Source: Patescibacteria group bacterium
GTDB lineage: Bacteria; Patescibacteriota; Microgenomatia; UBA8517
Reading direction: 5' to 3'
NCBI GenBank assembly: GCA_038061225.1
Contig: JBBTZT010000002.1
Location: forward strand, 12,655-76,654
DNA length: 64,000 nt
Under the pieces are notes generated by a model that saw only the letters and a list, made by a program, of their open reading frames with translations, had not been told where the DNA came from and searched no databases. The translations under genes were made by a program, and so were the position numbers. Positions 3,005 to 57,099 of this stretch are shown here, in pieces; positions within the stretch are counted from its first letter, which is position 1, and every line of letters starts with the position of its first letter.

Positions 3005-3948
3005 AACGATTTGTAATATTTAATTGTTTTTTGAAGACCCTCTTTAAGTTCTACTTTTGGCTCCCAATTTAATGTTTTTCTTGCTTTCGTAATATCTGGA
3101 CACCTTTGCATTGGGTCGTCTGGTCTAAATTTGCCAGAATAAACAACTTTAGATTTACTATTTGTCAATTTAATTACTATTTCTGCTAGTTCCTTAATTG
3201 CAAATTCATCCGGATTTCCGAGATTAAATATTTCACCCTTTGTTTTATTAGTAAACATTGCCTTTTTAATTCCATCAACTAAGTCTGATACATAACAAAA
3301 TGACCTTGTTTGACTTCCATCACCATCTATTTTGATATCTTCATTTTTTAAAGCCCAGTTTATAAAGTTACTAACTACCCTACCATCATCTTTTTGCATC
3401 TGGGGGCCATAAGTGTTAAATATTCTAATTATTCTTGCATCAATATCATATTTATTTAAATACACATAAGTTGCTGTTTCAGCGAATCTTTTACTTTCGT
3501 CATAACATGCACGTGGTCCAAATGTATTAACATTACCACAATATGTCTCTTTTTGTGGATGTTCTAATGGATCACCATAAACCTCAGATGTTGAGGCTAT
3601 AAGAATTTTGGCTTTTAAGTCTTTAGCCAGAGCTAGCATATTGACGGTACCCTTAGAGTTAACAAGAAGCGTTTCAAGTGGAAAATTCTGATAATCTATT
3701 GGGGAGGCGGGTGACGCTAAGTGAAAAATAAAATTTGCTGAAGTATTGATTAATTGATTTATTGAATTACTAGTTATATCTGCTTTTATGAAGCTAAAGT
3801 TAGAATTTGTAAGTAAATCTTCTATATTTTTTGAGCTTCCTGTAATTAGATTGTCAAGACACATTACTTCATACCCATCACTTAAAAGAGATTTACATAA
3901 ATGTGAACCAATGAATCCTGCACCACCAGTGACTAATACTTTTTTCAT
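3001..3948 (-). CDS. UDP-glucuronate decarboxylase / UDP-xylose synthase-type SDR epimerase-dehydratase
   Basis: Rossmann motif GGAGFIGSHL and catalytic YDESK (YxxxK). End-to-end similarity to the UXS/ArnA-decarboxylase family (VLVTGGAGFIGSHLC...DNL.TG). Confidence 0.75.
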   Translation of the reverse strand: MKKVLVTGGAGFIGSHLCKSLLSDGYEVMCLDNLITGSSKNIEDLLTNSNFSFIKADITSNSINQLINTSANFIFHLASPASPIDYQNFPLETLLVNSKGTVNMLALAKDLKAKILIASTSEVYGDPLEHPQKETYCGNVNTFGPRACYDESKRFAETATYVYLNKYDIDARIIRIFNTYGPQMQKDDGRVVSNFINWALKNEDIKIDGDGSQTRSFCYVSDLVDGIKKAMFTNKTKGEIFNLGNPDEFAIKELAEIVIKLTNSKSKVVYSGKFRPDDPMQRCPDITKARKTLNWEPKVELKEGLQKTIKYYKSF

Positions 3949-3967
3949 ATGGTAGAATTATAACAGC

Positions 3968-5452
3968 ATGAAGCTTTGGAAGAAACTAATAACTATCATT
4001 GATACCCCACTTTGGCTTGAGATTTTCTTATGTCTACTTCTAGTTTTGAGGATTCCTTCGTTTTTTGAACCATATTATTATGGTGATGAAATGATCTACC
4101 TAGCTCTTGGCCAAGGTCTTAGACAAGGAATCCCTCTTTATTTAGGATTGCATGATAATAAACCACCTCTTCTTTATTTAATTGCTGCCCTAGCCGGAAA
4201 TTTGTTTTTATTTAAAGTAATATTGGCTTTTTGGAGTTTAGCTACAATTTATGTTTTTTGGAAATTAGTTAAACATCTCTTCCCAAAACAAGTAAGACTT
4301 CAAAACATATCTACTATCATCTTTGGCATACTAACCACAATTCCACTTTTTGAAGGCAATACAGTAAACGCTGAGTTGTTTATGATTGGTCCTGTAATTT
4401 TAGCTTTTCTAATTTTATTATCCAAAAAGAACAATCTTAAAAACTTATTAATTTCTGGCTCTTTAATTTCAATTGCAGCCCTTTTCAAAATTCCAGCAGC
4501 TTTTGATATTTTAGGAATAATTGCTTTTTGGTTAATATATTTAAAATTTAAAGATGTTAAAGAGTTTGTTGTTAAATCAATTTATTTATTTTTAGGTTTT
4601 ATAATCCCGATAGGTTTAACTTTTGTTTGGTATTATTTTGCGGGTGGTTTTAAGGAATATTTAGTTGCAGTATTTTTACAAAACTTTGGCTATGTTAGTA
4701 GTTGGAGACCAAGTCCTGTAGAGCTTTCATTTATAGAAAAAAATAGTCCATTACTAATTAGGACCGGTGTTATGTTTTTAGGGTTTATCGGACTTTTTAT
4801 ATCAAGAAAAAAACTTTCAAAAGAATTTGTTTTTGTTTCAGCTTGGTTATTGGCAACACTTTTTGCTGTTACATTATCAGAACGTCCTTATCCTCATTAT
4901 TTTGTTCAATCTCTTGCCCCTCTATCAATACTATTGGGGATGTTATTTAGTTTAAAAACAGTAGAACAAAGTTTGACTGTAATTCCATTAACAATTGCAT
5001 TTTTTGTCCCCTTTTATTACAAATTTTGGTATTATCCAACAGCTTCTTATTACACAAGGTTTATTAAATTTGTTACTAAACAAACAACAAAACAGGAATA
5101 TTTTAAAAGTTTCTCTCCCAATGTTACATTAAATTATGAAATTGCTGATTTTCTTGCTAAATCCTCTACAAAAAATGATAGAATCTTTGTTTGGAGCAAT
5201 GATTCATCTGCAATTTACTCTTTGTCAAGAAGACTCCCACCTATAAAATATGTTGCTGATTATCACTTTAGGGATTTTTCAAATCCTAACGAGGTCATAA
5301 ACATCCTTACTAAAACAATGCCAAAGTTTATAGTTATTACTTCAAGCTCTTTTCCTTTTCCTGAGCTTAATACTTTTGTAAATGAAAATTATTATATAAT
5401 TTCTGAGATCGGCACAAGTCAAATATGGCTTTACATAAATCAAGGTGAATAA
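3968..5452 (+). CDS. GT-C family glycosyltransferase (ArnT/PMT-like, polyprenyl-phosphate-sugar dependent)
   Basis: A polytopic membrane protein. The first extracytoplasmic loop carries YYYGDEMIY, the DE motif of ArnT/PMT GT-C enzymes. There are about 11 predicted helices and a C-terminal soluble domain. Confidence 0.6.
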   Translation: MKLWKKLITIIDTPLWLEIFLCLLLVLRIPSFFEPYYYGDEMIYLALGQGLRQGIPLYLGLHDNKPPLLYLIAALAGNLFLFKVILAFWSLATIYVFWKLVKHLFPKQVRLQNISTIIFGILTTIPLFEGNTVNAELFMIGPVILAFLILLSKKNNLKNLLISGSLISIAALFKIPAAFDILGIIAFWLIYLKFKDVKEFVVKSIYLFLGFIIPIGLTFVWYYFAGGFKEYLVAVFLQNFGYVSSWRPSPVELSFIEKNSPLLIRTGVMFLGFIGLFISRKKLSKEFVFVSAWLLATLFAVTLSERPYPHYFVQSLAPLSILLGMLFSLKTVEQSLTVIPLTIAFFVPFYYKFWYYPTASYYTRFIKFVTKQTTKQEYFKSFSPNVTLNYEIADFLAKSSTKNDRIFVWSNDSSAIYSLSRRLPPIKYVADYHFRDFSNPNEVINILTKTMPKFIVITSSSFPFPELNTFVNENYYIISEIGTSQIWLYINQGE

Positions 5453-5460
5453 ATTTCATT

Positions 5461-5853
5461 ATGAATATGAATAAATTTCATTTCAAATTAAAAAAGGTTC
5501 CTGTAATCAAAATTGACCCGCGTTTTGAAAAATTACCATTAAGACATCTTTTTATAATTTCTCTTGTTATTAATTGTGTTTTAATTCTGTCAGGACTTTT
5601 TGCAAAATTTGTCTTACCTCCAGAAATACCTTTATATTATGGGCTTCCTAAGAATGAAGACCAACTTGCCAATTCAATTTATATTATTTTACCGGCCTTA
5701 ATGTCAATTTTAGTTACAATTATTAATGCAGCGCTATCTGTTATTTCAAATAGTGTTTACCTTAAAAAAACTCTTGCTTTTGCTTCTATTTTAGTAACAA
5801 TTTTAAGTATTGTTGCAACTTACAAAATAATATTTTTAGTTGGTTCATTTTAA
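5461..5853 (+). CDS. Small integral membrane protein, hypothetical
   Basis: Three to four hydrophobic helices with no recognisable motif. Co-directional with the glycan cluster. Confidence 0.3.
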   Translation: MNMNKFHFKLKKVPVIKIDPRFEKLPLRHLFIISLVINCVLILSGLFAKFVLPPEIPLYYGLPKNEDQLANSIYIILPALMSILVTIINAALSVISNSVYLKKTLAFASILVTILSIVATYKIIFLVGSF

Positions 5854-6883
5854 TAAAATGTTAAAAATAACAAATCTTTTATTTATTCCTTTATTTATAG
5901 CATTTTTAGTTTCGTATTTTATTACTCCTGTTGTTATTAAATACGCAAAAATATTAAAAATCATGGACGATCCAAAGAAAAATAGACATCCAAAAGTAAT
6001 ACATACTACGCCAATTCCCAGAGGCGGCGGAATACCTGTTTTTCTCTCAATTTTAGTGGCTTCATTAATTTTTATACCTGTTGATAAACATTTAATATCA
6101 ATTTTACTGGGCGCATTTGTGATATTTATAATGGGATTTTTAGATGATAGATATAATCTAAACCCTTATTTAAGAATAGGTCTTGGATTTTTAGCAGCCA
6201 TTATTCCAATCGCTTCAGGTATTGGGATAGCTTTTTTAACCAATCCTTTTGGAGGTATCTTTGACCTTTCAAATCCAATTATTTCTGATATTTTTGCTCT
6301 AGTTTGGATTGTCTTTATGATGAATATGCTAAACATGGGGGCCAAAGGAATTGATGGTCAGCTTTCAGGTGTTACAATCATTTCAGCTCTAACAATCACT
6401 GCTCTTTCCTTTTACTATTCCTCAGATATCACACAATGGCCAGTGATATTAATAACAGGAATAACTGCTGGCGCATTTTTAGGTTTTCTTCCATGGCACA
6501 AGTATCCTCAAAAAATTATGCCAGGCTATGGAGGTGCAACATTAGCGGGTTATATGCTTGCAATTGCCTCAATACTTTCAACCACCAAAGTGGGAACGTT
6601 AATTGTAGTTTTAGGCATCCCTTTAATAGATACGGGGTATACTATCATTAGAAGAATTCTGTCAGGTAAATCCCCCGTCTGGGGTGACAGAGGGCATCTA
6701 CATCATAAATTACTAGACTCTGGTCTTTCAAAAAAACAAGTGTCCCAAATTTATTGGTCACTGACTGCAATACTTGGGATTTTAGCTCTTAATTTGAATA
6801 GTACATATAAGTTATATACAATCATAGGAGTATCGTTAGTTTTAGGAGGTTTAATACTATGGTTGACTTACCGATCCAGATAA
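5840..6883 (+). CDS. MraY/WecA-family polyprenyl-phosphate N-acetylhexosamine-1-phosphate transferase (GT4 family)
   Basis: Ten or so TM helices and a DDxxN-type motif (FLDDRYNLNPYLRIGLGF). The overall family pattern includes MNMLNMGAKGIDG. Confidence 0.7.
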   Translation: MVHFNKMLKITNLLFIPLFIAFLVSYFITPVVIKYAKILKIMDDPKKNRHPKVIHTTPIPRGGGIPVFLSILVASLIFIPVDKHLISILLGAFVIFIMGFLDDRYNLNPYLRIGLGFLAAIIPIASGIGIAFLTNPFGGIFDLSNPIISDIFALVWIVFMMNMLNMGAKGIDGQLSGVTIISALTITALSFYYSSDITQWPVILITGITAGAFLGFLPWHKYPQKIMPGYGGATLAGYMLAIASILSTTKVGTLIVVLGIPLIDTGYTIIRRILSGKSPVWGDRGHLHHKLLDSGLSKKQVSQIYWSLTAILGILALNLNSTYKLYTIIGVSLVLGGLILWLTYRSR

Positions 6884-7818
6884 GCGAGCTTGTTTTGCAA
6901 ATAATTCGTGTGGCAAGACCCATTCATTGGGTTAAGAATCTTGCCCTTTTTGGGGCATTACTTTTAACAGGAACTCTTTATGAAACAGGTCTTTTTAAAG
7001 ATGTTCTTTTGGCTTTCTTTTCTTTTTCTTTTGCTACTTCTGCAACTTATATTTTTAATGACATATTAGATTCAAAATCAGATAGACTTCATCCTGTCAA
7101 AAAAAACAGACCGATCGCTTCAAGTAAATTACCTTTTTCAATTGCTGTATTTGAACTATTAGGCTTTATATTCATGTCGTTAGTTTTGGCCATACCCTTA
7201 AATCAAATATTTACTATTTTAATTTTGATATATATAGGATTGCAGATTTTGTATAGTTTAGGTCTTAAAAATATACCTGTTATTGATATTTTAATTATTG
7301 CTACAGGTTTTATTTTAAGAGTCTACGGCGGAGCCGTTGTAATTAATGCTCACCTTTCAGTTTGGTTTCTACTTTGTGTGGTTTCTGCCTCATTATTTTT
7401 AGCCGCAGGGAAAAGAAGGGCTGAAATAAATTTGCTTGAAGCTGTTGATGGAGGGACAAGAAAAAGCCTTACTAAATACTCAAAAGAGTTATTAAATAGC
7501 TATGTTACAATGTTTGGTAATGCTACTTGGATGAGTTGGAGCCTTTATACTTTTTTTGAATCCCCAAAAGCATCCTTAAACTTTTGGTTAGTCTTGGCTG
7601 AAGTTTCAAGGGCCACAACTATTAATAAACTAATGATGTTAACAATTCCTGTTGTAATTTTTGGAATTATGCGATATGAAGCTTTAATTTTTGAAGGCAA
7701 ATCAGAAGCTCCTGAAAAACTTTTGTTAACAGATAAAGCACTCTTAACTGCTGTTATCCTTTGGATATCAATTGTTTATTGGATTATTTATTCTGGAGTA
7801 TCTGTTAGCGGAATATAG
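6859..7818 (+). CDS. UbiA-family prenyltransferase, decaprenyl-phosphate phosphoribosyltransferase (DPPR synthase)-like
   Basis: First Asp-rich motif NDILDSKSDRLHPVKKNRPIASSKL (NDxxDxxxD) and polytopic topology. The 4-bp-coupled start overlaps the end of the upstream gene. Confidence 0.65.
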   Translation: MVDLPIQISELVLQIIRVARPIHWVKNLALFGALLLTGTLYETGLFKDVLLAFFSFSFATSATYIFNDILDSKSDRLHPVKKNRPIASSKLPFSIAVFELLGFIFMSLVLAIPLNQIFTILILIYIGLQILYSLGLKNIPVIDILIIATGFILRVYGGAVVINAHLSVWFLLCVVSASLFLAAGKRRAEINLLEAVDGGTRKSLTKYSKELLNSYVTMFGNATWMSWSLYTFFESPKASLNFWLVLAEVSRATTINKLMMLTIPVVIFGIMRYEALIFEGKSEAPEKLLLTDKALLTAVILWISIVYWIIYSGVSVSGI

Positions 7819-8687
7819 ATTTTTGTTACATATTCACCACTTACCCACCCTTCTACCGGTGCAGCCGGCCAAGCTTCGCTTATCTCTCCTATTTTTATTT
7901 TAAACCAACTGCTATCTTCATTTTCTTCAATCACTTCATATTCTTCGCCTGGTTTAACTTCTGCTACTTCAGGAAAATTTACTCCCGCTCCCTGTCTAAC
8001 TCTTAAAAAACCTATGTCTGTTTTGTTTATAACGATAGTTGGAAGCATTTTCACTCTTGTTTTTATTTCAGTTGGTTTAAGTAATTCTTTTCCATCAGTT
8101 GCTGGTGTTTCGTTTGATTTTGCTAATTTTACTGAAGCTGTTAATTTATAACCTGCATAGACTTTAATAGGAAGAGATTTTTCTAAATATTTATCAGCAG
8201 AAACAATTAAATTATGATCTCCAGCAGGAACTTTTACACGGAGTGGTGTATATCCATATATTTTATTATCAATTAAAACTTGTGCATTATCAGGAACTGA
8301 CACAACAGTAATATATGATTCTTTACCACCCAGTTTTTCAAAAGATACAACTACTCCACTTGAGCTTTCTTCTGTTTCTCTAAAAACTCTTTTAACAATT
8401 GTCCTAATTCCTGAAACCAAATTTATTTTAGTTTCATAATCATCTAAAATAATATTATTAACACTATCTGGTTTTATTCTTAAAAGAATTTCTCCAGGAT
8501 TTCTATTTACTTCATATGGAGTTTTACCAACTTCTTGATTATTTATATAAACAGTTGAAATAGGGTCTGCTTCTACTAAAATTCCAGCTTCTTGGACATT
8601 AAAAAAATCGAGTAATAATAAAACCAATAAACCTAGGACAATGATTCCAGTCAAGACCAAAACAATTTTGACAATTTTCTTTTTCAT
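7788..8687 (-). CDS. PEGA-domain membrane-anchored protein
   Basis: N-terminal TM anchor. Two PEGA-like beta motifs (VYINNQEVGKTPYEV; VLIDNKIYGYTPLRVKV) and a C-terminal SH3-like segment. Confidence 0.5.
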   Translation of the reverse strand: MKKKIVKIVLVLTGIIVLGLLVLLLLDFFNVQEAGILVEADPISTVYINNQEVGKTPYEVNRNPGEILLRIKPDSVNNIILDDYETKINLVSGIRTIVKRVFRETEESSSGVVVSFEKLGGKESYITVVSVPDNAQVLIDNKIYGYTPLRVKVPAGDHNLIVSADKYLEKSLPIKVYAGYKLTASVKLAKSNETPATDGKELLKPTEIKTRVKMLPTIVINKTDIGFLRVRQGAGVNFPEVAEVKPGEEYEVIEENEDSSWFKIKIGEISEAWPAAPVEGWVSGEYVTKIYIPLTDTPE

Positions 8688-8754
8688 ATGTTCTTTAGTG
8701 TATCAGATTTTAAAAAAAATCCTTTGAGTATTCATATGTTACAATATGGCTATT

Positions 8755-8828
8755 GATCCGGTGCTAGAGTGGCCATAGGGCGGTCTGCAAAACCGTTTAC
8801 ATGGGTTCAAATCCCATCCGGATCTCCC
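8755..8828 (+). tRNA. tRNA-Cys (anticodon GCA)
   Basis: Cloverleaf read by hand. The acceptor is GATCCGG/CCGGATC. The anticodon stem is GCGGT/ACCGT with loop CTGCAAA. The T arm is ATGGG-TTCAAAT-CCCAT and the discriminator is U. Confidence 0.75.
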
Positions 8829-8864
8829 AGCTCCGATTTGAATTTATATTATCGTTTTTTATTA

Positions 8865-9452
8865 TCAACAAGATTGTTCCACTTTGCCCACAAAGGTAAC
8901 ATCTTTACCCCAATCATAATCTTCACTCCCAGGTAAACTCTCATCGAATTTATATTTTCCCCAAAATTCTTTTTTAATCAATGAGTTAGTATTTGATATC
9001 CAAGGAGTATAATCCTCTCGCTTTTTAAAAAATGGAAAATATAAAAAGACAATGTTTCCTAAAAACCTAGACCAATAACCCACTATAAAGTCTGAATAAT
9101 AGCCACTAAGTCCTGCAAGAGTTTTTTCTTTCATCAAGACATTAACTCCACTTGCAAGCCAATTGTTAGAAATCGGAATAGAATGGCCACTCAGAATACA
9201 AATGTATTTGCCCTTTGCTTTGTTTATACCGTAATTGAGTGAATATCCGTAAGTAAAATCTTTTTGACTAATTTTATATAAACGGATTGGAAACTTTTTA
9301 ACAATTTCGAGCGTCTGATCAGTTGATCCCGAATCAACAATTATAATTTCAAAATTTTTGAAAGTTTGTTTTAAAAGTAGATTTAAAACTTTACCTAAAT
9401 ATTTAGCCTCATTTTTAGTTCTTATAACAATACTTACAAGTGGATTTTCCAT
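8865..9452 (-). CDS. Family-2 glycosyltransferase (short)
   Basis: N-terminal GT-A signature VSIVIRTKNEAKYL...IIIVDSGSTDQT. Confidence 0.6.
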   Translation of the reverse strand: MENPLVSIVIRTKNEAKYLGKVLNLLLKQTFKNFEIIIVDSGSTDQTLEIVKKFPIRLYKISQKDFTYGYSLNYGINKAKGKYICILSGHSIPISNNWLASGVNVLMKEKTLAGLSGYYSDFIVGYWSRFLGNIVFLYFPFFKKREDYTPWISNTNSLIKKEFWGKYKFDESLPGSEDYDWGKDVTFVGKVEQSC

Positions 9453-45617: not shown

Positions 45618-46124
45618 TTAGCCACGACCTTCTTGCTTAGGCAGGAAGGGTAAAATAAAAAATTTAGAAATTTCTTCATTAACTTTCAGAAAATCTCCAT
45701 CATCAATTACAGCTAATTTGTACCAAATTCGTTTGCTACTAAAAACTCTAATCTGCGAAGTCATTGCTGAGACGATTTCGTCTTTGACTGAAATTCGAAT
45801 ATAATATTTGTTATCTTTTAGTTTTGTACTCAATGGTACGCCTAAAAACAATTCTCTGTTGAACTTTTTGACTACTAAAACAGGACGAATAAATATATCG
45901 TTCTTTCCATCTTCTTCAAAACCAACATTTACACCAATTGATGTCCACCATATATCGCGTTCGTTAAATTGTGGAGAAGCAGTAACTTTATTGTTTATTT
46001 CCTTTTTCTTTTCTATCCATTTATCAAAGTTCTTAACATGAATATTATTAGACGAAGTAAGTACAGATTGAGAAGCGATTTTAGCAATTGAATCTTCTAT
46101 CGTTTTATCTATTTTGGCAGGCAT
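45618..46124 (-). CDS. MazF/PemK-family toxin-like protein with a 55-aa N-terminal extension and no cognate antitoxin seen
   Basis: RDIWWTSIGVNVGFEEDGKNDIFIRPVLVVKKFNRELFLGVPLSTKLKDNKYYIRI. This matches the family pattern GDIW.V...G.E..G.RPVLVV...N.....VP.TS. Confidence 0.5.
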   Translation of the reverse strand: MPAKIDKTIEDSIAKIASQSVLTSSNNIHVKNFDKWIEKKKEINNKVTASPQFNERDIWWTSIGVNVGFEEDGKNDIFIRPVLVVKKFNRELFLGVPLSTKLKDNKYYIRISVKDEIVSAMTSQIRVFSSKRIWYKLAVIDDGDFLKVNEEISKFFILPFLPKQEGRG

Positions 46125-46156
46125 GAAGAAATTATAACATTTATATTCTGAGAATA

Positions 46157-46378
46157 TTAGCCAAAGATTTCAGATGGGGGGGATTCGTCGCCGTAGACCT
46201 TTGCATACCAATCAGTAAAACCTTGGTTGTACCAAGTGCTTGGGGCGGGGTCTGCTGCAAGGGCAACTGCAAATGGCATGAAGAGGGAATTTAAAAACAG
46301 TAAGGTGGAAAGAAAAATTAAGCAAAGCTTGCCACTTCGTGGTAAACTGATTTTTTTGGTTAAGCTTGACAAGTTCAT
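46157..46378 (-). pseudogene. Duplicated 5' fragment (73 codons) of the 44044..45579 gene, with its own leader copy
   Basis: MNLSSLTKKISL...FMPFAVALAADPAPSTWYNQGFTDWYAKVYGDESPPSEIFG* compared with MSNLTKKISL...AMPFAVALAADPAPSTWYNQGPFDWYLKVYDDESSPPSEIFGERY.... The two copies share about 53 identical nt. A C7 homopolymer lies inside the fragment. Confidence 0.6.
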
Positions 46379-46531: not shown

Positions 46532-47497
46532 TTAAACTTCACTGATTACATCAAAGCCTTTAAAACTCCCAACTATTGCTAAACCATAAATTTTCCCTGT
46601 GCAAATTCCTCTTCTTTTGATTTGTAAAGCCGTTTCGTTTAGGGTTGATCCTGAACCTACCGCATCATCAATCAAAAGTATGTTTTTGTGTTTATTGTTG
46701 TCGTCAACAATGATGGTATTTCTTGCATTTTGTATTCTATCTTCTATCTTGGTTAGTGTTTTTTGGGGAACAGCCACGTCTGTTTTTGCCTTTGTGATAG
46801 ATATTAGTTTTGAATCTAAATTTAAATGTTTTTGAATAACCTTCATTAATTGGAACTCTCTTTTAACAGTTGGAGGGATAAACCCAACACTAGTAATCTT
46901 ATTTTTTTTGATTAATTTAATAATTTTAGACTTTATTTGTAGAGAGATCTCTTTCATAAGTTTTTTGTTTTGGCTTTGTTTAGCATACAAAAGTAGTTGT
47001 CCGAGTTTTGTTTTTCCAAATTTCTCGATTGAATAAAAATCCAGATAATACACACTGTCAAGACCAATTGTAGAAAATGTATTTACTAATTTAAGTGTTC
47101 CGTCAATAAAATCATTCTTTTTGTATTTTTTATATATATTAAATGTTTTTATGTATTCTAATGCGGTCTTTTCAATTGGTTGTTTAGTTTTGTTGCACCA
47201 TGCAACAAAACCACTTACTCCATCAACTTTTTCTCCATCAGGTGAAATATATAAATAATTTTTATTGACAAAATCAGAGACCTTTTTTTTTAAATCGTAG
47301 CTTTGAATACTTTTTTCTCTAGAAATATAGTAGAAAACTTTTGGGGGTATACCAATTTTTGAAACAATTCCTCGTTTTAGCAATGTAGATAATTGCTTCC
47401 TTACAGCTCTATCAGTTATATCGAAAACATCAGAAAGTTCTTTTCCTGTAACTTTTTCGTGCTTGTTTAGATACTCAATTAATAAATTCATAGCCAT
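46532..47497 (-). CDS. N-terminal winged-HTH + C-terminal phosphoribosyltransferase-domain protein (ComF/PRTase-like)
   Basis: HTH GKELSDVFDITDRAVRKQLSTLLKRGIV. PRPP-binding ILLIDDAVGSGSTLNET. Confidence 0.5.
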   Translation of the reverse strand: MAMNLLIEYLNKHEKVTGKELSDVFDITDRAVRKQLSTLLKRGIVSKIGIPPKVFYYISREKSIQSYDLKKKVSDFVNKNYLYISPDGEKVDGVSGFVAWCNKTKQPIEKTALEYIKTFNIYKKYKKNDFIDGTLKLVNTFSTIGLDSVYYLDFYSIEKFGKTKLGQLLLYAKQSQNKKLMKEISLQIKSKIIKLIKKNKITSVGFIPPTVKREFQLMKVIQKHLNLDSKLISITKAKTDVAVPQKTLTKIEDRIQNARNTIIVDDNNKHKNILLIDDAVGSGSTLNETALQIKRRGICTGKIYGLAIVGSFKGFDVISEV

Positions 47498-47541
47498 ATT
47501 GTATATAGTTCCTAGTTCCTAGTGTACTAGGAACTGTAAAT

Positions 47542-49131
47542 TTGTCAAGACCTTGTAATCAAAAACTGTTTGTAGCATACTTTTGTTTAGTGTTAACTAA
47601 AATTCTATCCGCTTCACATTTTGGTTTGGAACCAAATTTAATAGAAGTTGAAGTAAATGTTTTTAAAAAAGGATTTCCTGGATTTTCGATAATTGGCCTT
47701 CCTAATAAATCAATTGAAGAGGCAAAAGAAAGAGTAAAAACTGCGCTATTAAATTCTAATATCAATTTTCCAAATCAAAAAATTGTAGTAAATTTAGCTC
47801 CCGCCGATATCCCTAAAGAAGGATCTTTGTATGATTTACCTATCGCTATTGGAATTTTAGCTTCTATGGAACTTATCAAATTGCCAACGGAAAAATCATT
47901 TTTTTACGGTGAATTATCATTGGATGGAGGCCTTCGTCATACCAAAGGGGTTTTTCTTTTAGGACTCGCTGCAAAACAAAAAGGAATCAAAAATATTTTT
48001 GTACCATCAGATTCTGCCAACGAAGCCGCTGTTTTATCAAGTATTGATGTTTACCCTGTTTTTTCTTTAAAAGAATTAATTGCACATCTAAATGGTGTAA
48101 AGAAAATAGAAAAATTATCCTACTCCGCCAAAGGCTTCGCGGGACCACATTCAGAAGATCTGAATGTGGAGTTTGATTTCTCAGAGATAATTGGTCAAGA
48201 GTCAGCCAAAAGGGCAATGACAATTGCTGCTGCAGGAGGTCATAATATTTTTTTAATTGGAACACCAGGGGCTGGAAAAACAATGCTTGCAAGAGCTACA
48301 GCGGGCATTTTACCGCCACTAAATGAAGAAGAGGCTTTGGAGGTTACCAAAATTTATTCTGTATCTGGATTAATTCCTGCAGGTGAGGGGTTAATTAGAA
48401 GTAGGCCTTTTAGAACAGCACACCACACAACAAGCCTTATTGGTTTAATAGGAGGTGGAACAAATCCTCATCCTGGAGAAATTTCACTTGCTCACAATGG
48501 TGTTTTATTTCTGGATGAATTTCCAGAATTTTCAAGGGGAACACTTGAGGCTTTGAGGCAACCTTTAGAAGATAGAAAAGTTTCCATAACCAGAATTGCA
48601 GGAAGCGCAGAATTTCCCGCTAGCTTTATGTTAATCGCAGCTGCAAATCCCTGTCCCTGTGGATATCTAGGAGATCCAAAAAGAGAATGTAAATGCACAC
48701 CAAGAATGGTTATGAATTATCAATCAAGACTTTCTGGCCCTTTAATGGATAGAATTGATTTACATTTAAATGTTCCAGCGGTGGATGTTAATAAACTTAT
48801 GACTAATAACTCATCACTCGTAACCCGTAACTCCAAAACAATTCGTGAACAAGTAATTAAGGCAAGAAATATACAAAATAAAAGGTTTAAAGGATTATCA
48901 GTTTTTGTAAATGCCAATATGAAAAATAAACATATTAAAGAATTTGTAGAAATAACACCTGAATCACTACTTTTACTTAAGCAAGCAGTAAATACATATA
49001 ATTTATCTGCTAGAACTTATTTTAGATTAATTAAAGTAGGTCAAACAATTGCAGACTTGGCAGATTCCACGAGTATACTTCCAAATCATGTCGCCGAAGC
49101 ACTTCAATACAGAGTAAGAACAAATGACTAA
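47542..49131 (+). CDS. comM: ComM/YifB Mg-chelatase-like AAA+ ATPase. The true start is probably an internal GTG/TTG.
   Basis: ChlI-type N-terminal LEPNLIEVEVNV...GFPGFSIIGLP, Walker A LIGTPGAGKTMLA, Walker B VLFLDEFPEF, and a C-terminal Mg-chelatase domain. Confidence 0.8.
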   Translation: MSRPCNQKLFVAYFCLVLTKILSASHFGLEPNLIEVEVNVFKKGFPGFSIIGLPNKSIEEAKERVKTALLNSNINFPNQKIVVNLAPADIPKEGSLYDLPIAIGILASMELIKLPTEKSFFYGELSLDGGLRHTKGVFLLGLAAKQKGIKNIFVPSDSANEAAVLSSIDVYPVFSLKELIAHLNGVKKIEKLSYSAKGFAGPHSEDLNVEFDFSEIIGQESAKRAMTIAAAGGHNIFLIGTPGAGKTMLARATAGILPPLNEEEALEVTKIYSVSGLIPAGEGLIRSRPFRTAHHTTSLIGLIGGGTNPHPGEISLAHNGVLFLDEFPEFSRGTLEALRQPLEDRKVSITRIAGSAEFPASFMLIAAANPCPCGYLGDPKRECKCTPRMVMNYQSRLSGPLMDRIDLHLNVPAVDVNKLMTNNSSLVTRNSKTIREQVIKARNIQNKRFKGLSVFVNANMKNKHIKEFVEITPESLLLLKQAVNTYNLSARTYFRLIKVGQTIADLADSTSILPNHVAEALQYRVRTND

Positions 49132-49489
49132 GCAATTTAACAGAATTAAAGGAAAAGATGGAGAGGAGATGGCTGCAAAGTGGTTGAAAGATCGAGGATA
49201 TAAGATTATAGATAAAAACAATTCAACAAAATTCGGAGAATTAGATATTATTGCTAGTAAAAACGATATATTAATTTTTGTTGAAGTAAAATTTAAACAA
49301 ACAGAAAACTTTGGAACGCCTGAAGAAATGATTGGAAAAAATAAATTAATGCAGGTTAGAAGAACGGCAGAATTATATTTATTAAATAACCCTGATATTG
49401 CAAAATTTTATGATAGATATCAAATAGATGCAGTTTGTATAGTAGAGGATACGGGTAGAATATCACATTATGAAAATCTTACATTTTAG
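49124..49489 (+). CDS. yraN: YraN-family (UPF0102) endonuclease
   Basis: GKDGEEMAAKWLKDRGYKIIDKN...GELDIIASKNDILIFVEVKFKQ. Confidence 0.7.
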   Translation: MTKQFNRIKGKDGEEMAAKWLKDRGYKIIDKNNSTKFGELDIIASKNDILIFVEVKFKQTENFGTPEEMIGKNKLMQVRRTAELYLLNNPDIAKFYDRYQIDAVCIVEDTGRISHYENLTF

Positions 49490-50261
49490 AGGAGTAGATC
49501 CTAATTCTATTAACAAAAAGTCTATTGCAGTTGTTGGTAGTCGTCAAATGACAAGGTATGGTAGAGATGTGGTTGATAAATTCGTGTGCGATTTTGTTGC
49601 TAATGGAGTAACAACAATCTCTGGTTTTATGTATGGCGTGGATACTGAAGTTGCAAAGAAAACACTTGAATATGGAGGAAAACACATTGCAATTTTTGGC
49701 TGTGGTCTGGACCATATTTATCCACCTGAAAACAAAAAGTTATATGAAGAGATTTTAAAAAGTGGAGGATCAATTGTTTCTGAGTATGAAGATTCGGCAA
49801 AACCAAGTATCTGGAAATTCCCACAAAGAAACAAAATTGTAGCTAGCCTCGCCTCACTTGGGGTTCTTGTTATTGAGGCGGGTAGCGGGAGTGGATCACT
49901 TGTAACTGCCAAAATTGCAAAAAAAATGGGCAAGAAAGTTTGGGCAGTACCTGGGCCTATAAATTCAAGAGTTTCTGTTGGATGTAATGAATTAATAAAA
50001 TCAGGCGACGCCCAAATGGCCATTTGTGTGAGAGATATTATTAAGATTAAAACTACAGAAATTCAGAACTCAAGAATTCCAGATAATCTAAATACAGAAG
50101 AACAAAAAATATTTAAAATACTTCAACTAGAGCCTATGGAAATTGATGAGATTGCACAGAAATTAGAAGAAAATGTTGTAGAAGTTGGATCTACACTATC
50201 AATAATGGGGATTAAAGGGTTAGTTACGGAGAGTGGCGGAAAATATTTTTTAGTACGGTAG
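49470..50261 (+). CDS. dprA: DNA processing protein DprA/Smf (Rossmann core + C-terminal wH, no SAM domain)
   Basis: IAVVGSRQMTRYGRDVV...TISGFMYGVDTEVAKKTLEYGGKHIAIFGCGLDHIYPPEN. Located downstream of comM and yraN. Confidence 0.8.
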   Translation: MKILHFRGVDPNSINKKSIAVVGSRQMTRYGRDVVDKFVCDFVANGVTTISGFMYGVDTEVAKKTLEYGGKHIAIFGCGLDHIYPPENKKLYEEILKSGGSIVSEYEDSAKPSIWKFPQRNKIVASLASLGVLVIEAGSGSGSLVTAKIAKKMGKKVWAVPGPINSRVSVGCNELIKSGDAQMAICVRDIIKIKTTEIQNSRIPDNLNTEEQKIFKILQLEPMEIDEIAQKLEENVVEVGSTLSIMGIKGLVTESGGKYFLVR

Positions 50262-52706
50262 TGTTGGTGAGCTTGGACAAAAAATTGGAGCCTTTGAAGC
50301 ATACGCAGCTCTCCAGTCAGTGTTATTAAGATTAGTAATAAGTTGTGAGGTATTGAATCCTGATCCGAAAAGTGGTGGTGGATATACACCACCAGGGTCC
50401 AATACTGTAATTGGCCACAGTACATAACCAGGTAAATATCCATACTCTTGAAGTGTCGCCTCATCTGTTTTGCCGGCAGCACAATCGTTTCTGAGTGTGT
50501 TAACCATGCAGTCAATTTTCTCATCGATTGATTGAACTTGTGAAACATTGCATCCAAAATGTGAACTTGATGATCCATCTGCCATATCTGTCATCAAACC
50601 ACCATTTTCATTAAGTCCGATTCCAATAGCCCAAAAAGGGTTAAGAGATTTGCCGTTACATTTCGTAGACGCTGCTTTTGCGATTACTTTGTTGTAAACA
50701 TTTTCATCAAGAAGCCATTGTTTACATGCTCCAGTCTCAGGTTCTTCTGTTGGTTTACAATTTCCATCAGCAATTGGTTCGCCGTAACCTTTAGGGCGAA
50801 GGGCAGTTTGAATTCCTTTTAAAAAGTATTCATAGACTGAACCTATGTGTGGGAAAGTTAATTCTGGTTTATCACCACCCCCATCTTCTGGAATTTTTTT
50901 AACACCAAATTCTAAAGACCCACCTCTTGGGGTTTCACTTTCCTCAGCATTATAAGTAACCCCAGTAACTGTTGGAATATCTGCAATACAACTAACTGGC
51001 GCACCTTCCTCGACTTTTGGAAATATTTTTCTAAAAGTACTTCCAGAGTCAGCTACAGTAGTTGAAAATATTTCATCTGCATTTGGAACTTTAACATCTG
51101 TTGGAACAACTATTGTAACTTCTGCGTTACAATGATGGGAATATGTAGTTTCCCAGGAACCTCCTTTTTTAGGGGGAAGGTTAGGAACCCAGATGGTTGT
51201 TTTAGTAACTTTACACAAAACTTGATCAATATTGTAGGTCACTTTTGGAATGACCATTTCTTTAGTGTCTCCAGGTGATCTATCTCCTGGGAATAAATTA
51301 TCACCTTTGTTTGTCCTGACATTTACTGCGCTACAGTCGAGACCGTTTACTTTTGGAAGAGTTTCTGTTGTTTCTGGAACCTTTTCACTTTTATATCCTT
51401 GTGGCAGATAGGTTTTATTTAATAATTCTGACGATTCTTTAACTTCCTCCGTATGTGCAAAATAAAGAGGAGCGTTTTTCTGATTTGCCTCGTCATATTT
51501 TTCACCTGAAATTACTGTTGTTCCGATTGAAGGTTTAAACTGAACATCTAGAATTCTCTCCGCACCTTTTTTGTCAGTAGTATTTGAAAGGGGAATATAT
51601 TGATATAAATCCGCCCATTTATTTGGTACGAATGGATTATCTATACACAAAAGAAGGTCAACAAAAGGAATTTTCGCGCAAGAATCACCTCGCCATTCGT
51701 TATATGCTTTTTGATATGCCTGTTGGCTTTCAAATGGGTCTCCATTTTTATCTGCCCAAGGAAGTGGCGGAGTCCTTTTGTTCCATATATCAGTTCCAAT
51801 TCTGTTAAACAATCCATTAAAATCTGACAAATCTCCTCCGTACCACCCCTGATCGCCCACTATACCTATACTTTTATCTATTAATCTAAATTTTTCATCT
51901 CCTCCATAGCAAGGGACAGGCGTAATTTTTCCGATATTAAGAAGGCCTCCAAACCAACCAAAGTTGCTATCTCCACAAACCACAATTTGATTATGATTTT
52001 GAGGTTCGGTAGTGTCACCAACTTCCTCATCGACATAGTTTGTGATTGCCGAAGCAGAGGCAATGGTGGAAATTCTTTGAGCATCTTGAATCACAGATGG
52101 TAAAAGTTTTTGGATTGGGCCTGAGAAATTAACAACTCGACTATCTGTATTTTCTTCATATTCAGCACGATTGTTTACTCCACTTAAATACCAACTTGCA
52201 TATTCATTTACTTTCTGTGCATCAGAAAATTCATCATTTTTTTTATCATAATTTTTTACTTGTTCAGTGTTCCCTAAAATTGGAAACATGGAATCTGTAA
52301 GCTCAACATAAAGATTATGAGGATCAATATAACCATCTTTGGGTTTACACCAGAAATCACTTGTATTTTTTCCCAAATCACATTGACTAGTTAAGTCAAA
52401 AGATTCAATAAATTTTAATTCATTGCTACAAAACAAAGCTTTATTGGCATCTCCACAGGCAGCGGCTTGATAAGGACGAAGGGAGTGAAATTCAGGATCC
52501 TTTACATCGTTACAAGGAAAACCCACTCTTGGAAAAGCCTCAACCTCGGCTTTTGCCGACGGAATTAAGAGTGAATAATTAATTATTAATAATAAAAACA
52601 AAGAGAAAGAAAACAGAATGAATTTAGACAATATTTTCATTTGACATTTAATATTATGGTTTAAAGATTGTAAAGTTTGTAACATCAGCACCTGTAAAGG
52701 TTCCAA
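50250..52706 (-). CDS. Large Cys-rich secreted protein (about 800 aa), terminal gene of the pilin-array operon. The probable start is MKILSKFILF at about 52640.
   Basis: Signal/TM anchor FILFSFSLFLLLIINYSLLIPSAKA. More than 30 Cys, no TM after the anchor, and no catalytic motif recognised. Confidence 0.45.
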   Translation of the reverse strand: MEPLQVLMLQTLQSLNHNIKCQMKILSKFILFSFSLFLLLIINYSLLIPSAKAEVEAFPRVGFPCNDVKDPEFHSLRPYQAAACGDANKALFCSNELKFIESFDLTSQCDLGKNTSDFWCKPKDGYIDPHNLYVELTDSMFPILGNTEQVKNYDKKNDEFSDAQKVNEYASWYLSGVNNRAEYEENTDSRVVNFSGPIQKLLPSVIQDAQRISTIASASAITNYVDEEVGDTTEPQNHNQIVVCGDSNFGWFGGLLNIGKITPVPCYGGDEKFRLIDKSIGIVGDQGWYGGDLSDFNGLFNRIGTDIWNKRTPPLPWADKNGDPFESQQAYQKAYNEWRGDSCAKIPFVDLLLCIDNPFVPNKWADLYQYIPLSNTTDKKGAERILDVQFKPSIGTTVISGEKYDEANQKNAPLYFAHTEEVKESSELLNKTYLPQGYKSEKVPETTETLPKVNGLDCSAVNVRTNKGDNLFPGDRSPGDTKEMVIPKVTYNIDQVLCKVTKTTIWVPNLPPKKGGSWETTYSHHCNAEVTIVVPTDVKVPNADEIFSTTVADSGSTFRKIFPKVEEGAPVSCIADIPTVTGVTYNAEESETPRGGSLEFGVKKIPEDGGGDKPELTFPHIGSVYEYFLKGIQTALRPKGYGEPIADGNCKPTEEPETGACKQWLLDENVYNKVIAKAASTKCNGKSLNPFWAIGIGLNENGGLMTDMADGSSSSHFGCNVSQVQSIDEKIDCMVNTLRNDCAAGKTDEATLQEYGYLPGYVLWPITVLDPGGVYPPPLFGSGFNTSQLITNLNNTDWRAAYASKAPIFCPSSPTLPY

Positions 52707-54205: not shown

Positions 54206-54489
54206 GCACTTGCAACCTTTTTACTATCATCTCCTGCAGACATAAAAGCATAACCAGCAAGAACAAGATTAAACAAAGCATAAATACCTGCACCAACTAC
54301 TAATGCTCGTAGTCCAAACTGAATTAATTTTCCAAAAGCAGGACCGGCTTCAGCTCCATAAATACTATTTAGTTTATCAGGAACTTCTACAGTTCCAAAT
54401 GGATTTTGCGCAAGTAAATTCATATATAAATCTATTATACTAATAATTGTCACCAACACAAGCACTTGACAGACCTCATATAATCCCAT
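54073..54489 (-). CDS. Pilin-like small two-TM protein, paralog 4. The likely start is MNLLAQNPFG at about 54423.
   Basis: MSAGDDSKKVASAWAKIYQTLMGLAFSAGSFVLAAIIGQLIF. Confidence 0.45.
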   Translation of the reverse strand: MGLYEVCQVLVLVTIISIIDLYMNLLAQNPFGTVEVPDKLNSIYGAEAGPAFGKLIQFGLRALVVGAGIYALFNLVLAGYAFMSAGDDSKKVASAWAKIYQTLMGLAFSAGSFVLAAIIGQLIFKNPLFLLQPSIPTP

Positions 54490-55562
54490 ATAATCTCATA
54501 TATATGAATGACAAGTTCAACATAAGGTTTAATAATGTATCACACGAGATATGGCTAAAAATTACACAAATAGAAAGTTTAAAAGGTAAATGGGATGGAA
54601 GTACCAAACTTAGCCCACAAATTCTTGGAAGATTAAAAAAATCCGTATTGGTTACCTCAACAGGTGCTTCTACTCGTATTGAAGGTTCAAAACTAACAGA
54701 TGAAACAGTTGAAAAAATGATGAAAGGGATTTCAATCCAAAAATTTAGTAATCGAGATGAACAAGAAGTAATGGGATATTATGAACTTCTTCAAAATATT
54801 TTTAATTCTTGGGAGTCAATAACATTTAGCGAAAGTGCAATATTACATTTTCATAAAGAATTGTTGAAATATGTTGGAAAAGACGAAACCCATAGAGGTG
54901 AGTATAAGAAAAAAGAAAATGCAGTACATATGGTTAATGAAAAAGGGAAATCAGTGGGAATTCTTTTTGAAACTACCAAGGCATATTTAACTCCAAAGGA
55001 AATGTATGAGCTCATTGATTGGACAAAAACAGCATTAAATCAAAATACCTATCATCCACTTTTAATTATTTCAAATTTTATAGTTGAATTTTTAAATATT
55101 CACCCTTTTTCTGACGGAAACGGCAGATTATCAAGAATTTTAACTAATTTATTGCTATTAAAAGCGGGTTATTTATATATACCATATGTATCACACGAAA
55201 AATTAATTGAAGATAATAAACCAGAATATTATTTAGCCTTACGCCGTAGCCAAAATACATTAAGAACCAAAAAACCAGATGTTTCGTTTTGGACCAATTT
55301 CTTTTTAGATATATTATTTACTCAATCTGAAATTGCCATAAAACAGTTAACAGAAACAAATATTGAATCAGTGTTATCACCAAAACAATTATTGGTTTGG
55401 GATTATTTAGAAAAAAATGATGAAGTGACTCCCATGGAAATTTCTAAAAAAGCTGGAGTTACTAGACCTACAGTTACTCAAGTTCTTGTTAAATTATTAG
55501 ATCTAAAAATGATTGAGAAAATTGGCCAAGGATCAGCAACAAGATATCGAAAACTAAAGTGA
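54447..55562 (+). CDS. fic: Fic-family protein (AMPylase-type) with C-terminal winged helix. The likely start is MNDKFNIRF at about 54504.
   Basis: Canonical Fic motif HPFSDGNGRLSRIL. A C-terminal wH runs QLLVWDYLEKNDEVTPMEISKKAGVTRPTVTQVLVKL. Confidence 0.8.
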   Translation: MSPTQALDRPHIIPYNLIYMNDKFNIRFNNVSHEIWLKITQIESLKGKWDGSTKLSPQILGRLKKSVLVTSTGASTRIEGSKLTDETVEKMMKGISIQKFSNRDEQEVMGYYELLQNIFNSWESITFSESAILHFHKELLKYVGKDETHRGEYKKKENAVHMVNEKGKSVGILFETTKAYLTPKEMYELIDWTKTALNQNTYHPLLIISNFIVEFLNIHPFSDGNGRLSRILTNLLLLKAGYLYIPYVSHEKLIEDNKPEYYLALRRSQNTLRTKKPDVSFWTNFFLDILFTQSEIAIKQLTETNIESVLSPKQLLVWDYLEKNDEVTPMEISKKAGVTRPTVTQVLVKLLDLKMIEKIGQGSATRYRKLK

Positions 55563-56597: not shown

Positions 56598-56879
56598 TTG
56601 TTAAACTTATACATCATGCAAACAAAATTATTAAATTATAGAGTTATTGTTGAGCCAGAAACCTATCCAAATGGTGATAAAGTTTATAATGCCTATTGTC
56701 CAACACTTGGGATAACAGATTACGGAGACACAATAGAAGAAGCGTTGGAAAGTTTAAAAGATGGTATTGGACTAGCTGTTGAAATGTTATCTAAAGAGAA
56801 AGCAGAAATTCCATCAGACGATTTAAATACCCAGATTGTTACTCAAACACAAATTCAATATCCGATAGCTTTTGCCTAA
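56598..56879 (+). CDS. hicB: HicB-family antitoxin
   Basis: YRVIVEPETYPNGDKVYNAYCPTLGITDYGDTIEEALESLKDGI matches the HicB/UPF0150 N-terminal fold. Confidence 0.65.
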   Translation: MLNLYIMQTKLLNYRVIVEPETYPNGDKVYNAYCPTLGITDYGDTIEEALESLKDGIGLAVEMLSKEKAEIPSDDLNTQIVTQTQIQYPIAFA

Positions 56880-57099
56880 GAAAATGCCCAAACTGCCAAG
56901 AAATATAAAACCGAAAATATTACTTAAAATTCTTAAATCAAAAGGTTTTGTCGAAGTTGGGGGAAAAGGGTCTCATGTTCGATTAAAGCATCAAGATGGT
57001 AGATGGACACAAGTTGCCATTCATCCCAAGCCAATTCCACAAGGAACTTTGAGAAAAATCTTGAGTCAAGTTAAACTTCAGATAGAGGATGTAAAATGA
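56872..57099 (+). CDS. hicA: HicA-family mRNA interferase toxin
   Basis: LLKILKSKGFVEVGGKGSHVRLKHQDGRWTQVAIHP matches the HicA signature. It overlaps hicB by 8 bp. Confidence 0.7.
   Translation: MPKKMPKLPRNIKPKILLKILKSKGFVEVGGKGSHVRLKHQDGRWTQVAIHPKPIPQGTLRKILSQVKLQIEDVK

Follow-up and report, generated by a model that had tools for sequence, protein, structure and literature searches.

The genes comM, yraN and dprA of a groundwater ultra-small CPR bacterium (Microgenomates) very probably form a compact operon whose role lies in natural transformation, in the cytoplasmic steps that follow DNA uptake. Judged by its predicted products, the trio is an ordinary example of the module of ComM helicase, YraN nuclease and DprA loader, and it is already known in kind because this module has been characterised experimentally and both com genes and comEC-dependent transformation have been documented in CPR bacteria. 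Coordinates refer to the window, that is, the whole stretch of 64,000 nucleotides that we analysed. The features of the locus are as follows.

47553..47581, + strand: putative promoter-like TTGTAA-N17-CATACT before comM, ending 8 nt before the GTG
47590..49131, + strand: comM (YifB-family AAA+ helicase), 513 aa, from GTG 47590; TIGR00368 and three Pfam domains
49124..49489, + strand: yraN (UPF0102, PD-(D/E)xK nuclease), 121 aa; PF02021, NF009150
49470..50261, + strand: dprA, 263 aa, Rossmann-fold domain and C-terminal winged helix; PF02481, PF17782
50250..52706, - strand: 818-aa ORF for a secreted protein, last gene of the pilin operon and convergent with dprA; context only

As the initial annotation had described, the three genes lie on one strand and overlap: comM and yraN share 8 bp (ATGACTAA), while yraN and dprA share 20 bp. 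Its claim that the end of dprA overlaps the 3' end of the pilin operon was likewise confirmed, since the dprA stop codon TAG (50259-50261) and the stop codon of the minus-strand 818-aa ORF (50250-50252), the last gene of that operon, define a 12-bp convergent overlap. The likely start of the 818-aa ORF is ATG 52637, which precedes a signal peptide. The ORF (50250..52706) had no match in Pfam, NCBIfam or PADLOC, and a homologue of its product beside dprA was found only in the closest relative (L082).

The identities of the three genes, and the label of a DNA-processing/competence module given to them, were upheld by profile matches and by published experiments. The comM ORF scored 565.7 bits against TIGR00368 (cut-off 362.4) and contains the Pfam domains ChlI (E 3.3e-41), Mg_chelatase (E 1.7e-91) and Mg_chelatase_C (E 2.4e-27). 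The gene and its AAA+ Mg-chelatase-like family were thus correctly called, but the start at 47542 was not retained. The longest ORF spans 47542-49131 and opens at TTG 47542; because the TIGR00368 match begins only at residue 21 of this ORF, and because ComM of relatives begins MLTKILSAS, at an ATG or a GTG, the true start is most likely GTG 47590, with TTG 47542 lying too early. In the translation, Walker A (GTPGAGKT), Walker B (LFLDEFPEF) and the Cys cluster (CPCGYLGDPKRECKC) are intact, and membership of the family predicts that ComM is a hexameric branch-migration helicase. The promoter-like element before comM was missed by the consensus promoter scan and is therefore a weak candidate; L082 has an identical TTGTAA-N17-CATACT before its comM, 9 nt ahead of the start codon. 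If real, the element would imply a near-leaderless transcript.

YraN matched PF02021 with 84.3 bits (cut-off 23.6, E 7.9e-24) and NF009150 with 81.8 (cut-off 81). Its catalytic residues D41, E54 and K56 are intact, within GELDII...FVEVK, and are also kept in the L002 and L082 orthologues. Previous work established that YraN is an ssDNA endonuclease needed for chromosomal but not plasmid transformation, that it interacts with ComM and acts with it at the transformation D-loop, and that in 34% of the genomes having both, their genes are co-localised (10.1101/2024.02.06.579203). Here the coupling seen is genomic, an adjacency kept in nine relatives; physical and functional coupling of this YraN to ComM is predicted.

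For DprA, the PF02481 score was 195.4 bits (cut-off 29.6, E 8.6e-58), and the winged-helix domain PF17782 was matched at residues 204-257 (26.3 versus 22.9, E 7.6e-6). The TIGR00732 score of 184.0 bits fell about 7 bits short of the cut-off of 191.15, with the first 34 profile positions unmatched. Among solved DprAs in the PDB the best E was 1.4e-29, and the matches begin at residue 106 (S. pneumoniae DprA) and residue 41 (H. pylori DprA). The protein, earlier described as a minimal DprA, is without the N-terminal SAM domain. The winged helix of DprA is known to bind and recruit ComM, its distribution mirrors that of ComM, and L252 of HpDprA and its equivalents are interface residues (10.1101/2024.10.21.619469); by its domain match, the winged helix encoded here would be of the ComM-recruiting type.

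Comparison with relatives separated the trio from its surroundings. The three genes are syntenic, contiguous or nearly so, in nine relatives (L002-L009 and L082), in which ComM is 61-83% identical to that of the window. In the two closest, L002 and L082, unrelated genes are inserted between comM and yraN, so tight translational coupling is not essential. The eight family-level relatives L002-L009 kept the trio with every flank different, and the flanks seen here (the pilin operon, the 818-aa protein and a gene for an HTH-PRTase) are common to L082 only. The neighbourhood comparison called for by the initial annotation therefore held for the trio but not for the pilin and PRTase flanks. We read the location of the trio, next to the HTH-PRTase gene and the T4SS-pilin operon, as a chance product of gene order in this lineage. 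At 70 more distant loci ComM occurred without DprA, and YraN was nearby in only 4 of them.

By analogy with the characterised proteins, we infer the activities of the trio, the contacts between its proteins and its role in transformation. DprA would use its Rossmann-fold domain to bind incoming ssDNA and load RecA, and its C-terminal winged helix would bring the hexameric ComM helicase to the D-loop. ComM would then extend the heteroduplex, and its partner YraN would nick the displaced chromosomal strand, making integration irreversible. The ssDNA itself would be passed on from the membrane channel by ComFC, encoded 12 kb away.

62161..62757, + strand: comFC-like gene, 198 aa, four-Cys zinc finger and PRTase, from ATG 62161 (ORF from TTG 62131)

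A ComFC-like protein had been placed at 62131..62757. The zinc finger, the PRTase and a full-length ComF profile match were recovered, but the start moves to ATG 62161, as called in public assemblies. ORF 62131-62757 aligned to positions 1-190 of the 190 of TIGR00201 (comF) with an E of 2.6e-29 and 102.5 bits, below the cut-off of 233.55, and its translation carries the motifs CLEC...CNKC and RGFNQ and the PRPP-binding loop LLFDDVYTTGST. The neighbours of the gene are smpB, the tmRNA gene and a tRNA cluster.

We found no genes for ComEC, ComEA, RecA, SSB or type IV pili in about 84 kb, comprising the window ORFs and about 10 kb on each side; among the ORFs scanned, the earlier remark that no ComEC or ComEA is visible in the window was accurate. 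This search combined a domain scan of the window ORFs with precomputed Pfam listings for about 10 kb beyond each end, and 58833-59450, 59625-61013, 62985-63473 and ORFs of less than 90 aa were covered by the precomputed listings or left out. The genes within 10 kb outside the window encode UvrD, an AddA-like UvrD+PDDEXK protein, RmuC, DnaG, RpoD and RNase J.

If the organism takes up no DNA, the trio could instead serve general recombination and repair, rescuing gapped or broken DNA. The lack of uptake genes in the 84 kb would fit such a role, as would the first three of the proteins encoded just beyond the window and the occurrence of DprA in 92.6% of genomes, many of them not known to be transformable (10.1101/2024.02.06.579203). 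However, comM and yraN mutants were specifically defective in transformation recombination in all species tested in that study. Moreover, com genes, including ComEC, are reported to be conserved across CPR bacteria and are functional in Saccharibacteria, where comEC-dependent transformation has been demonstrated (PMC10633639), and the window contains the ComFC-like gene. We therefore consider a pure repair role unlikely and favour the post-uptake role in transformation.

The initial annotation had also joined these genes with the VirB4 operon and the pilin array into a single toolkit. On this reading the trio would act on the cytoplasmic side of a machine that moves DNA and is derived from the neighbouring VirB4/pilin T4SS-like system, by analogy with the ComB system of H. 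pylori. The 12-bp convergent overlap of dprA with the last pilin-operon gene, the VirB4 operon at a distance of 10 kb and the pilin-like genes directly 3' of comM at two other loci (L022 and L024) make the idea attractive, but the adjacency was retained in L082 alone and the eight other relatives with the trio have other flanks. Pilin-like genes lay within 10 kb of comM at 4 of 80 loci, as against 1 of 14 around an unrelated gene, and are thus not enriched near comM. Domain and profile scans also detected no coupling protein or relaxase among the window ORFs or in the 84 kb. The T4SS of Saccharibacteria, also a CPR system without coupling protein or relaxase, is essential, while comEC is dispensable there (PMC10633639), which argues against the link as well. 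Hence the single toolkit was not borne out, given the differing flanks in L002-L009 and the lack of pilin enrichment; a coupling of the trio to a T4SS that transfers DNA, whether conjugative or ComB-like, is not supported by these gene orders, and we regard such a machine as very unlikely.

Divergent from comM lies a second PRTase gene with its own candidate control region.

46532..47497, - strand: gene for a 321-aa fusion of a winged HTH and a ComF-fold PRTase, divergent from comM; HTH_11/DeoR and weak ComF/PRTase matches
47504..47538, no strand assigned: operator-like element, a perfect palindrome with a third half-site
47521..47548, - strand: promoter-like TTGACA-16-TACACT of the HTH-PRTase gene, from the consensus scan, 10/12 matches

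Pfam and NCBIfam profiles assigned the product an HTH_11/DeoR domain and gave weak PRTase and ComF matches. Its AF2 model (mean pLDDT 86.5) had H. pylori ComF (7p0h, E 2e-6) as the best PDB fold match, and ShosT was also among the fold matches; searched by sequence against the PDB, neither PRTase gave anything significant. The previous description of this protein as a ComF-type PRTase with an N-terminal HTH thus holds for the fold, but not for its standing as a competence neighbour: the gene stands alone, with its own operator-like element, at 12 other CPR loci, and within 4 kb no partner gene recurred at three or more of the 14 loci compared. Since the four-Cys zinc finger is absent, we did not class the protein as ComFC. 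Its family is unnamed and highly conserved, with 4221 homologues, of which the best 120 are 55-100% identical; PRTase domain identity across phyla is 55-60%, and among the matches listed the named members are all from CPR bacteria. A literature search with the Pfam name PRTase-CE gave nothing. An origin as a phage or plasmid gene was rejected, as tblastn matches were absent from both collections.

The operator-like element consists of a perfect palindrome, AGTTCCTAGT-GT-ACTAGGAACT, at 47514-47535 and a third, direct copy of the 7-mer half-site at 47507-47513. The window contains a single copy, where 0 would be expected by chance, and the same architecture of palindrome and half-site precedes all 20 of the 20 HTH-PRTase family genes examined. 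The half-site sequence co-varies with the recognition helix, giving at least four operator classes. Here the -10 box of the promoter-like sequence of the HTH-PRTase gene is the palindrome centre, as in L084, L086 and L089; across loci, the element is centred on the -10, lies downstream of it, or lies upstream of an extended -10 (L090). An RNA hairpin in place of a DNA operator is less likely, because the element varies in its position relative to promoter-like boxes and its half-site sequence changes in step with the recognition helix. We infer that HTH-PRTase copies repress their own promoters through the palindrome and the extra half-site. Direct control of comM by the HTH-PRTase is unsupported: the single element spans only the -10/+1 region of the HTH-PRTase gene itself, the putative -35 of comM begins 15 nt beyond it, and no such element is found upstream of comM in L002-L009.

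We also weighed whether a toxin-antitoxin defence pair of the Shosta/PsyrTA type could be made up of the HTH-PRTase as PRTase toxin and the DprA-like protein as antitoxin. In PADLOC, DprA matched ShosA (E 1.6e-45) and PsyrA (E 1.5e-18), and the HTH-PRTase matched the C-terminal half of PsyrT (E 8e-14) and ShosT (E 1.4e-3), the latter also a fold match; the two genes are 2 kb apart, in L082 as well. Genuine DprA models nevertheless scored higher (195 bits for Pfam, 184 bits for TIGR00732), and the comparison of DprA with solved DprAs (1e-29) surpassed that with ShosA (4.6e-17). The two genes are also divergent, with comM and yraN in between; L002-L009 keep dprA with comM-yraN and without the PRTase, and the 12 other HTH-PRTase loci have no DprA-like neighbour. 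A defence pair is, on this evidence, extremely unlikely. For the HTH-PRTase we propose, as a long shot, that it stands for a class of transcription factors or effectors that sense a ligand, one not yet described and so far seen only in CPR bacteria. The probable self-repression, the operator classes that changed in step with the recognition helix and the PRTase identity kept across phyla would support this. Speculatively, the back-to-back promoters in this lineage might couple PRPP/nucleotide status to expression of the comM operon. If true, competence would be switched by nucleotide sensing in organisms unable to make nucleotides.

The trio itself adds little beyond the existence of the DprA-ComM-YraN module in Microgenomates as one overlapping operon, which fits the view of CPR bacteria as naturally transformable. 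Tempting as it is to connect the competence genes with the T4SS-like pilus system of CPR bacteria, synteny gives no support for this. The HTH-PRTase family, large, strongly conserved and unnamed, with a clear cis-element and a predicted protein-DNA specificity code, may offer a tractable way into gene regulation in CPR bacteria, a group with almost no characterised regulators.

Compared with the ComM/YraN pair of Legionella, Acinetobacter and Vibrio, the genes described here encode the same two families, adjacent, on one strand and with intact motifs; they differ in belonging to a CPR bacterium (Microgenomates), in the order comM-yraN-dprA and in their overlapping frames. DprA resembles the H. 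pylori type in its Rossmann fold and C-terminal winged helix, in having no SAM domain and in being encoded alongside ComM. With H. pylori ComFC (PDB 7p0h; PMC9005727) the product of 62161-62757 has in common a PRPP loop, the motif RGFNQ and a zinc finger of four Cys, while scoring under the curated cut-off for the ComF family.

Relative to the same ComFC structure (7p0h), the HTH-PRTase has a winged HTH in place of the zinc finger, together with its own operator-like element. Its architecture also recalls a known regulator.

B. subtilis PurR combines a winged-helix DNA-binding domain with a PRTase-like, PRPP-sensing domain. The HTH-PRTase is similar in its N-terminal wHTH, C-terminal PRTase fold, intact PRPP loop and probable autoregulation; it differs in having a ComF-type PRTase domain and in that the regulon seen is its own promoter only, and no sequence or fold match to PurR was obtained. 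With ShosTA and PsyrTA (PMC11961720, PMC12961424) the locus has in common a PRTase and a DprA-like protein, with weak profile and fold similarity; here, however, the two genes are neither operonic partners nor co-inherited, and DprA behaves like a housekeeping orthologue.

The window represents ordinary chromosomal DNA of a Microgenomates (CPR) bacterium, whose nearest ComM is that of Candidatus Woesebacteria GW2011_GWB1_33_22 (83% identity); Hainich groundwater contigs and assembly GCA_964354885.1 encode proteins identical to its own. It carries rnpA-yidC-jag and dnaA-dnaN at 28-32 kb, together with aminoacyl-tRNA synthetases, groESL, cell-wall genes, tmRNA, smpB, and tRNA genes. Just outside it on the left (L102, a fetched locus, 2046-9332) lies a repair/recombination cluster of UvrD, an AddA-like UvrD+PDDEXK_1 protein of 932 aa, and RmuC. 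The genes considered here are the following.

46532-47497, minus strand: HTH-PRTase, a winged HTH fused to a ComF-fold PRTase, divergent from comM
47590-49131, plus strand: comM
49124-49489, plus strand: yraN
49470-50261, plus strand: dprA
ending at 50250, minus strand: domain-less 818-aa ORF, last of the pilin operon
62131-62757 (called start ATG 62161): ComFC-like gene

Domain and profile matches confirmed comM, yraN, and dprA as named in the initial annotation; what the genes are, which motifs they carry, and how the operon is built can be seen directly in the window, and the catalytic motifs are all intact. The comM ORF contains ChlI, Mg_chelatase, and Mg_chelatase_C domains and scores above the YifB-family cut-off (565.7 versus 362.4 bits). 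Because this match starts at residue 21 of the ORF and the orthologues in L002, L005 (family-level relatives), and L082 (the closest relative) open with MLTKILSAS from a GTG or ATG, we placed the start at GTG 47590 instead of the TTG at 47542 originally proposed. YraN is above the PF02021 and NF009150 thresholds and retains the PD-(D/E)xK residues D41, E54, and K56. DprA has a Rossmann-fold domain and a C-terminal winged helix without a SAM domain, so that the "minimal" protein described earlier is of the H. pylori-type architecture; it is 7 bits short of the TIGR00732 cut-off, since nothing in it matches the first 34 profile positions. The overlaps between comM and yraN (8 bp, ATGACTAA), yraN and dprA (20 bp), and, convergently, dprA and the 818-aa ORF of the pilin operon (12 bp) were read directly in the sequence.

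To compare neighborhoods, 80 ComM loci from genome representatives were searched with all window proteins. All of the eight genomes nearest to the window (L002-L009, 61-83% ComM identity) have the trio, and none of them carries the HTH-PRTase, the 818-aa protein, pilins, or a 511-aa membrane protein near it. L082, a metagenome contig closer than these, keeps the 818-aa protein, dprA, yraN, comM, the HTH-PRTase, and the 511-aa protein. Among 70 more distant ComM loci, none had a DprA neighbor and YraN was near ComM in only four. Tight comM-yraN coupling is dispensable, as one to three unrelated genes separate the two in L002 and L082, the two closest relatives; the window has the compact version, with overlapping reading frames. 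The intervening cargo (L002 11552-13654; L082 3788-4340) has an ORF of 111-153 aa common to both, and in L002 two more ORFs (233 and 219 aa) without annotation.

YraN is an ssDNA endonuclease required in chromosomal, not plasmid, transformation; it interacts and synergizes with ComM, and the two genes are co-localized in 34% of genomes having both (Hardy et al., bioRxiv 10.1101/2024.02.06.579203). The DprA winged helix, a domain that the window DprA has, recruits ComM, and its distribution mirrors that of ComM (10.1101/2024.10.21.619469). ComEC, DprA, and ComFC are reported to be conserved in CPR bacteria, and comEC-dependent transformation has been demonstrated in Saccharibacteria (PMC10633639). 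As the three proteins act together elsewhere, post-uptake processing of DNA is the most likely role of the trio. With activities inferred from other species, DprA would load RecA and recruit ComM, ComM would extend the D-loop, and YraN would nick the displaced strand, making the trio a CPR example of an already known, recently characterized module. The initial annotation had noted no ComEC or ComEA in the window; neither was found among the window ORFs scanned or in public domain listings 10 kb past each end.

Two PRTases had been described as ComF-type. ORF 62131-62757 aligns end to end with the ComF profile (E 2.6e-29, below the curated cut-off) and has a four-Cys finger, an RGFNQ motif, and a PRPP loop, which makes the ComFC-like label fair. 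After this comFC/tRNA region, one Hainich strain variant has large serine recombinase genes (L106 11655-16309) where the other has dnaG-rpoD, a difference pointing to an element that has integrated at the tRNA cluster. In the HTH-PRTase, a winged HTH precedes a C-terminal domain whose matches to ComF, GntX, and PRTase are weak. An AlphaFold model of it, based on 33 sequences, is of good confidence (mean pLDDT 86.5); when PDB folds were compared with the protein, H. pylori ComF came first (7p0h, E 2e-6), before HPRTs, ShosT, and PyrR, so that the ComF-type assignment holds for the PRTase domain. The C-terminal tail ...KGFDVISEV (residues 313-321; 46532-46558) is invariant or nearly so in 33 homologues; residues 314-321 are disordered in the model (pLDDT <50), and the tail may serve as a docking peptide or as a lid over the active site.

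In PADLOC, DprA resembled ShosA or PsyrA, and the PRTases resembled PsyrT or ShosT, as would be expected if HTH-PRTase and DprA formed a Shosta/PsyrTA-type pair, in which a PRTase toxin is paired with a DprA-like antitoxin (PMC11961720). We regard such membership as highly improbable because the window DprA matches models and structures of true DprA more strongly and co-occurs with comM-yraN in relatives, and because the HTH-PRTase is found elsewhere without any DprA-like neighbor. The likeness is best read as common ancestry of domains.

Among 4221 database homologues of the HTH-PRTase, the best 120 are all ~325 aa and 55-100% identical; the named ones among them, labeled only "HTH domain-containing" or hypothetical, are from Collier-, Falkow-, Kuenen-, and Woesebacteria, Saccharimonadales, and Parcubacteria. 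Identity is 55-60% across CPR phyla, and every member that is listed and named belongs to the CPR. The homologue listing shows two copies for one Collierbacteria genome. No recurrent neighbor gene was seen around the family, and no phage or plasmid homologues were found. Between the HTH-PRTase and the 511-aa protein (45618-46378) lies a PemK/MazF-like gene (168 aa), beside which a 73-aa ORF (46157-46378) duplicates the N-terminus of the 511-aa protein; L082 has a 23S_rRNA_IVP-family gene there, and the slot looks like an insertion hot spot.

Between the HTH-PRTase gene and comM, AGTTCCTAGT-GT-ACTAGGAACT forms a perfect palindrome, to which a third, direct half-site is added; this element is present as a single copy in the window (0 expected by chance). 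An element of this design, rc(X)-spacer-X-X with a 7-mer as X, lies upstream of HTH-PRTase family genes at 20/20 loci examined (including window 46532-47538, L082, L084, L086, and L088-L100), against a background of ~13 sporadic, mostly low-complexity matches in the other ~1.4 Mb of fetched DNA. The 7-mer differs by locus, and its class co-varies with the recognition helix of the HTH-PRTase.

Recognition helix of the HTH-PRTase and 7-mer of the upstream element
TDRAVRKQL: AGGAACT
SERAVFKQL: ATGAACT
SR(M/I)AVSK or SRQMIHR: TGTAAAC
SRQALFKHHL: TGTCAAC

The position of the element relative to promoter-like boxes also differs among loci; in the window the palindrome centre is the -10 box of a TTGACA-16-TACACT promoter-like sequence. 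An RNA hairpin is disfavored by both the co-variation and this variable position. Since the element is also conserved, we favor, from sequence comparison, a DNA operator with autorepression as the likely function of the HTH-PRTase. The comM promoter-like sequence TTGTAA-N17-CATACT, which stops 8 nt short of the start codon in the window and 9 nt short of it in L082, is back to back with that of the HTH-PRTase and outside the operator-like element, and the element is absent in relatives whose comM is without an HTH-PRTase neighbor; for these reasons we do not claim control of comM. The part worth pursuing is an unnamed family of apparently autoregulated wHTH-ComF-fold PRTases with a putatively readable operator code.

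While the gene identities of the initial annotation stood, its tie between them and the T4SS did not. The T4SS-like genes comprise an operon directly downstream of dnaN, adjoining the replication origin genes, and eight small proteins of the T4SS_pilin kind (one scanned directly against PF18895, five more assigned by public annotation of identical contigs).

32294-39154: T4SS-like operon encoding a PrgI-like protein, VirB4 of the Gram-positive CD1110 type, and domain-less proteins (891, 228, and 197 aa)

Amid the pilin array lies an antisense Fic + MarR-type HTH gene (54447-55562, plus strand) resembling the defence protein SoFic (PADLOC E 2.9e-40), and immediately upstream of the array is a probable HicB/HicA toxin-antitoxin pair (56598-57099; HicA_toxin from public annotation of an identical contig). 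Pilin-like genes were within 10 kb of comM at 4/80 loci and near the unrelated HTH-PRTase gene at 1/14, so no enrichment was seen. In two other CPR genomes, L022 (12012-12776) and L024 (7689-8294), comM is followed directly, on its own strand, by T4SS_pilin-like genes, which over all loci is not above background. By the criterion that the initial annotation itself set, scattered rather than syntenic genes in relatives, its proposal of a DNA-handling toolkit beside an envelope apparatus fails. The window ORFs scanned include neither a coupling protein nor a relaxase. In lacking both, the T4SS-like system of the window matches the Saccharibacterial T4SS, which is essential to epibiotic growth, comEC being dispensable (PMC10633639).
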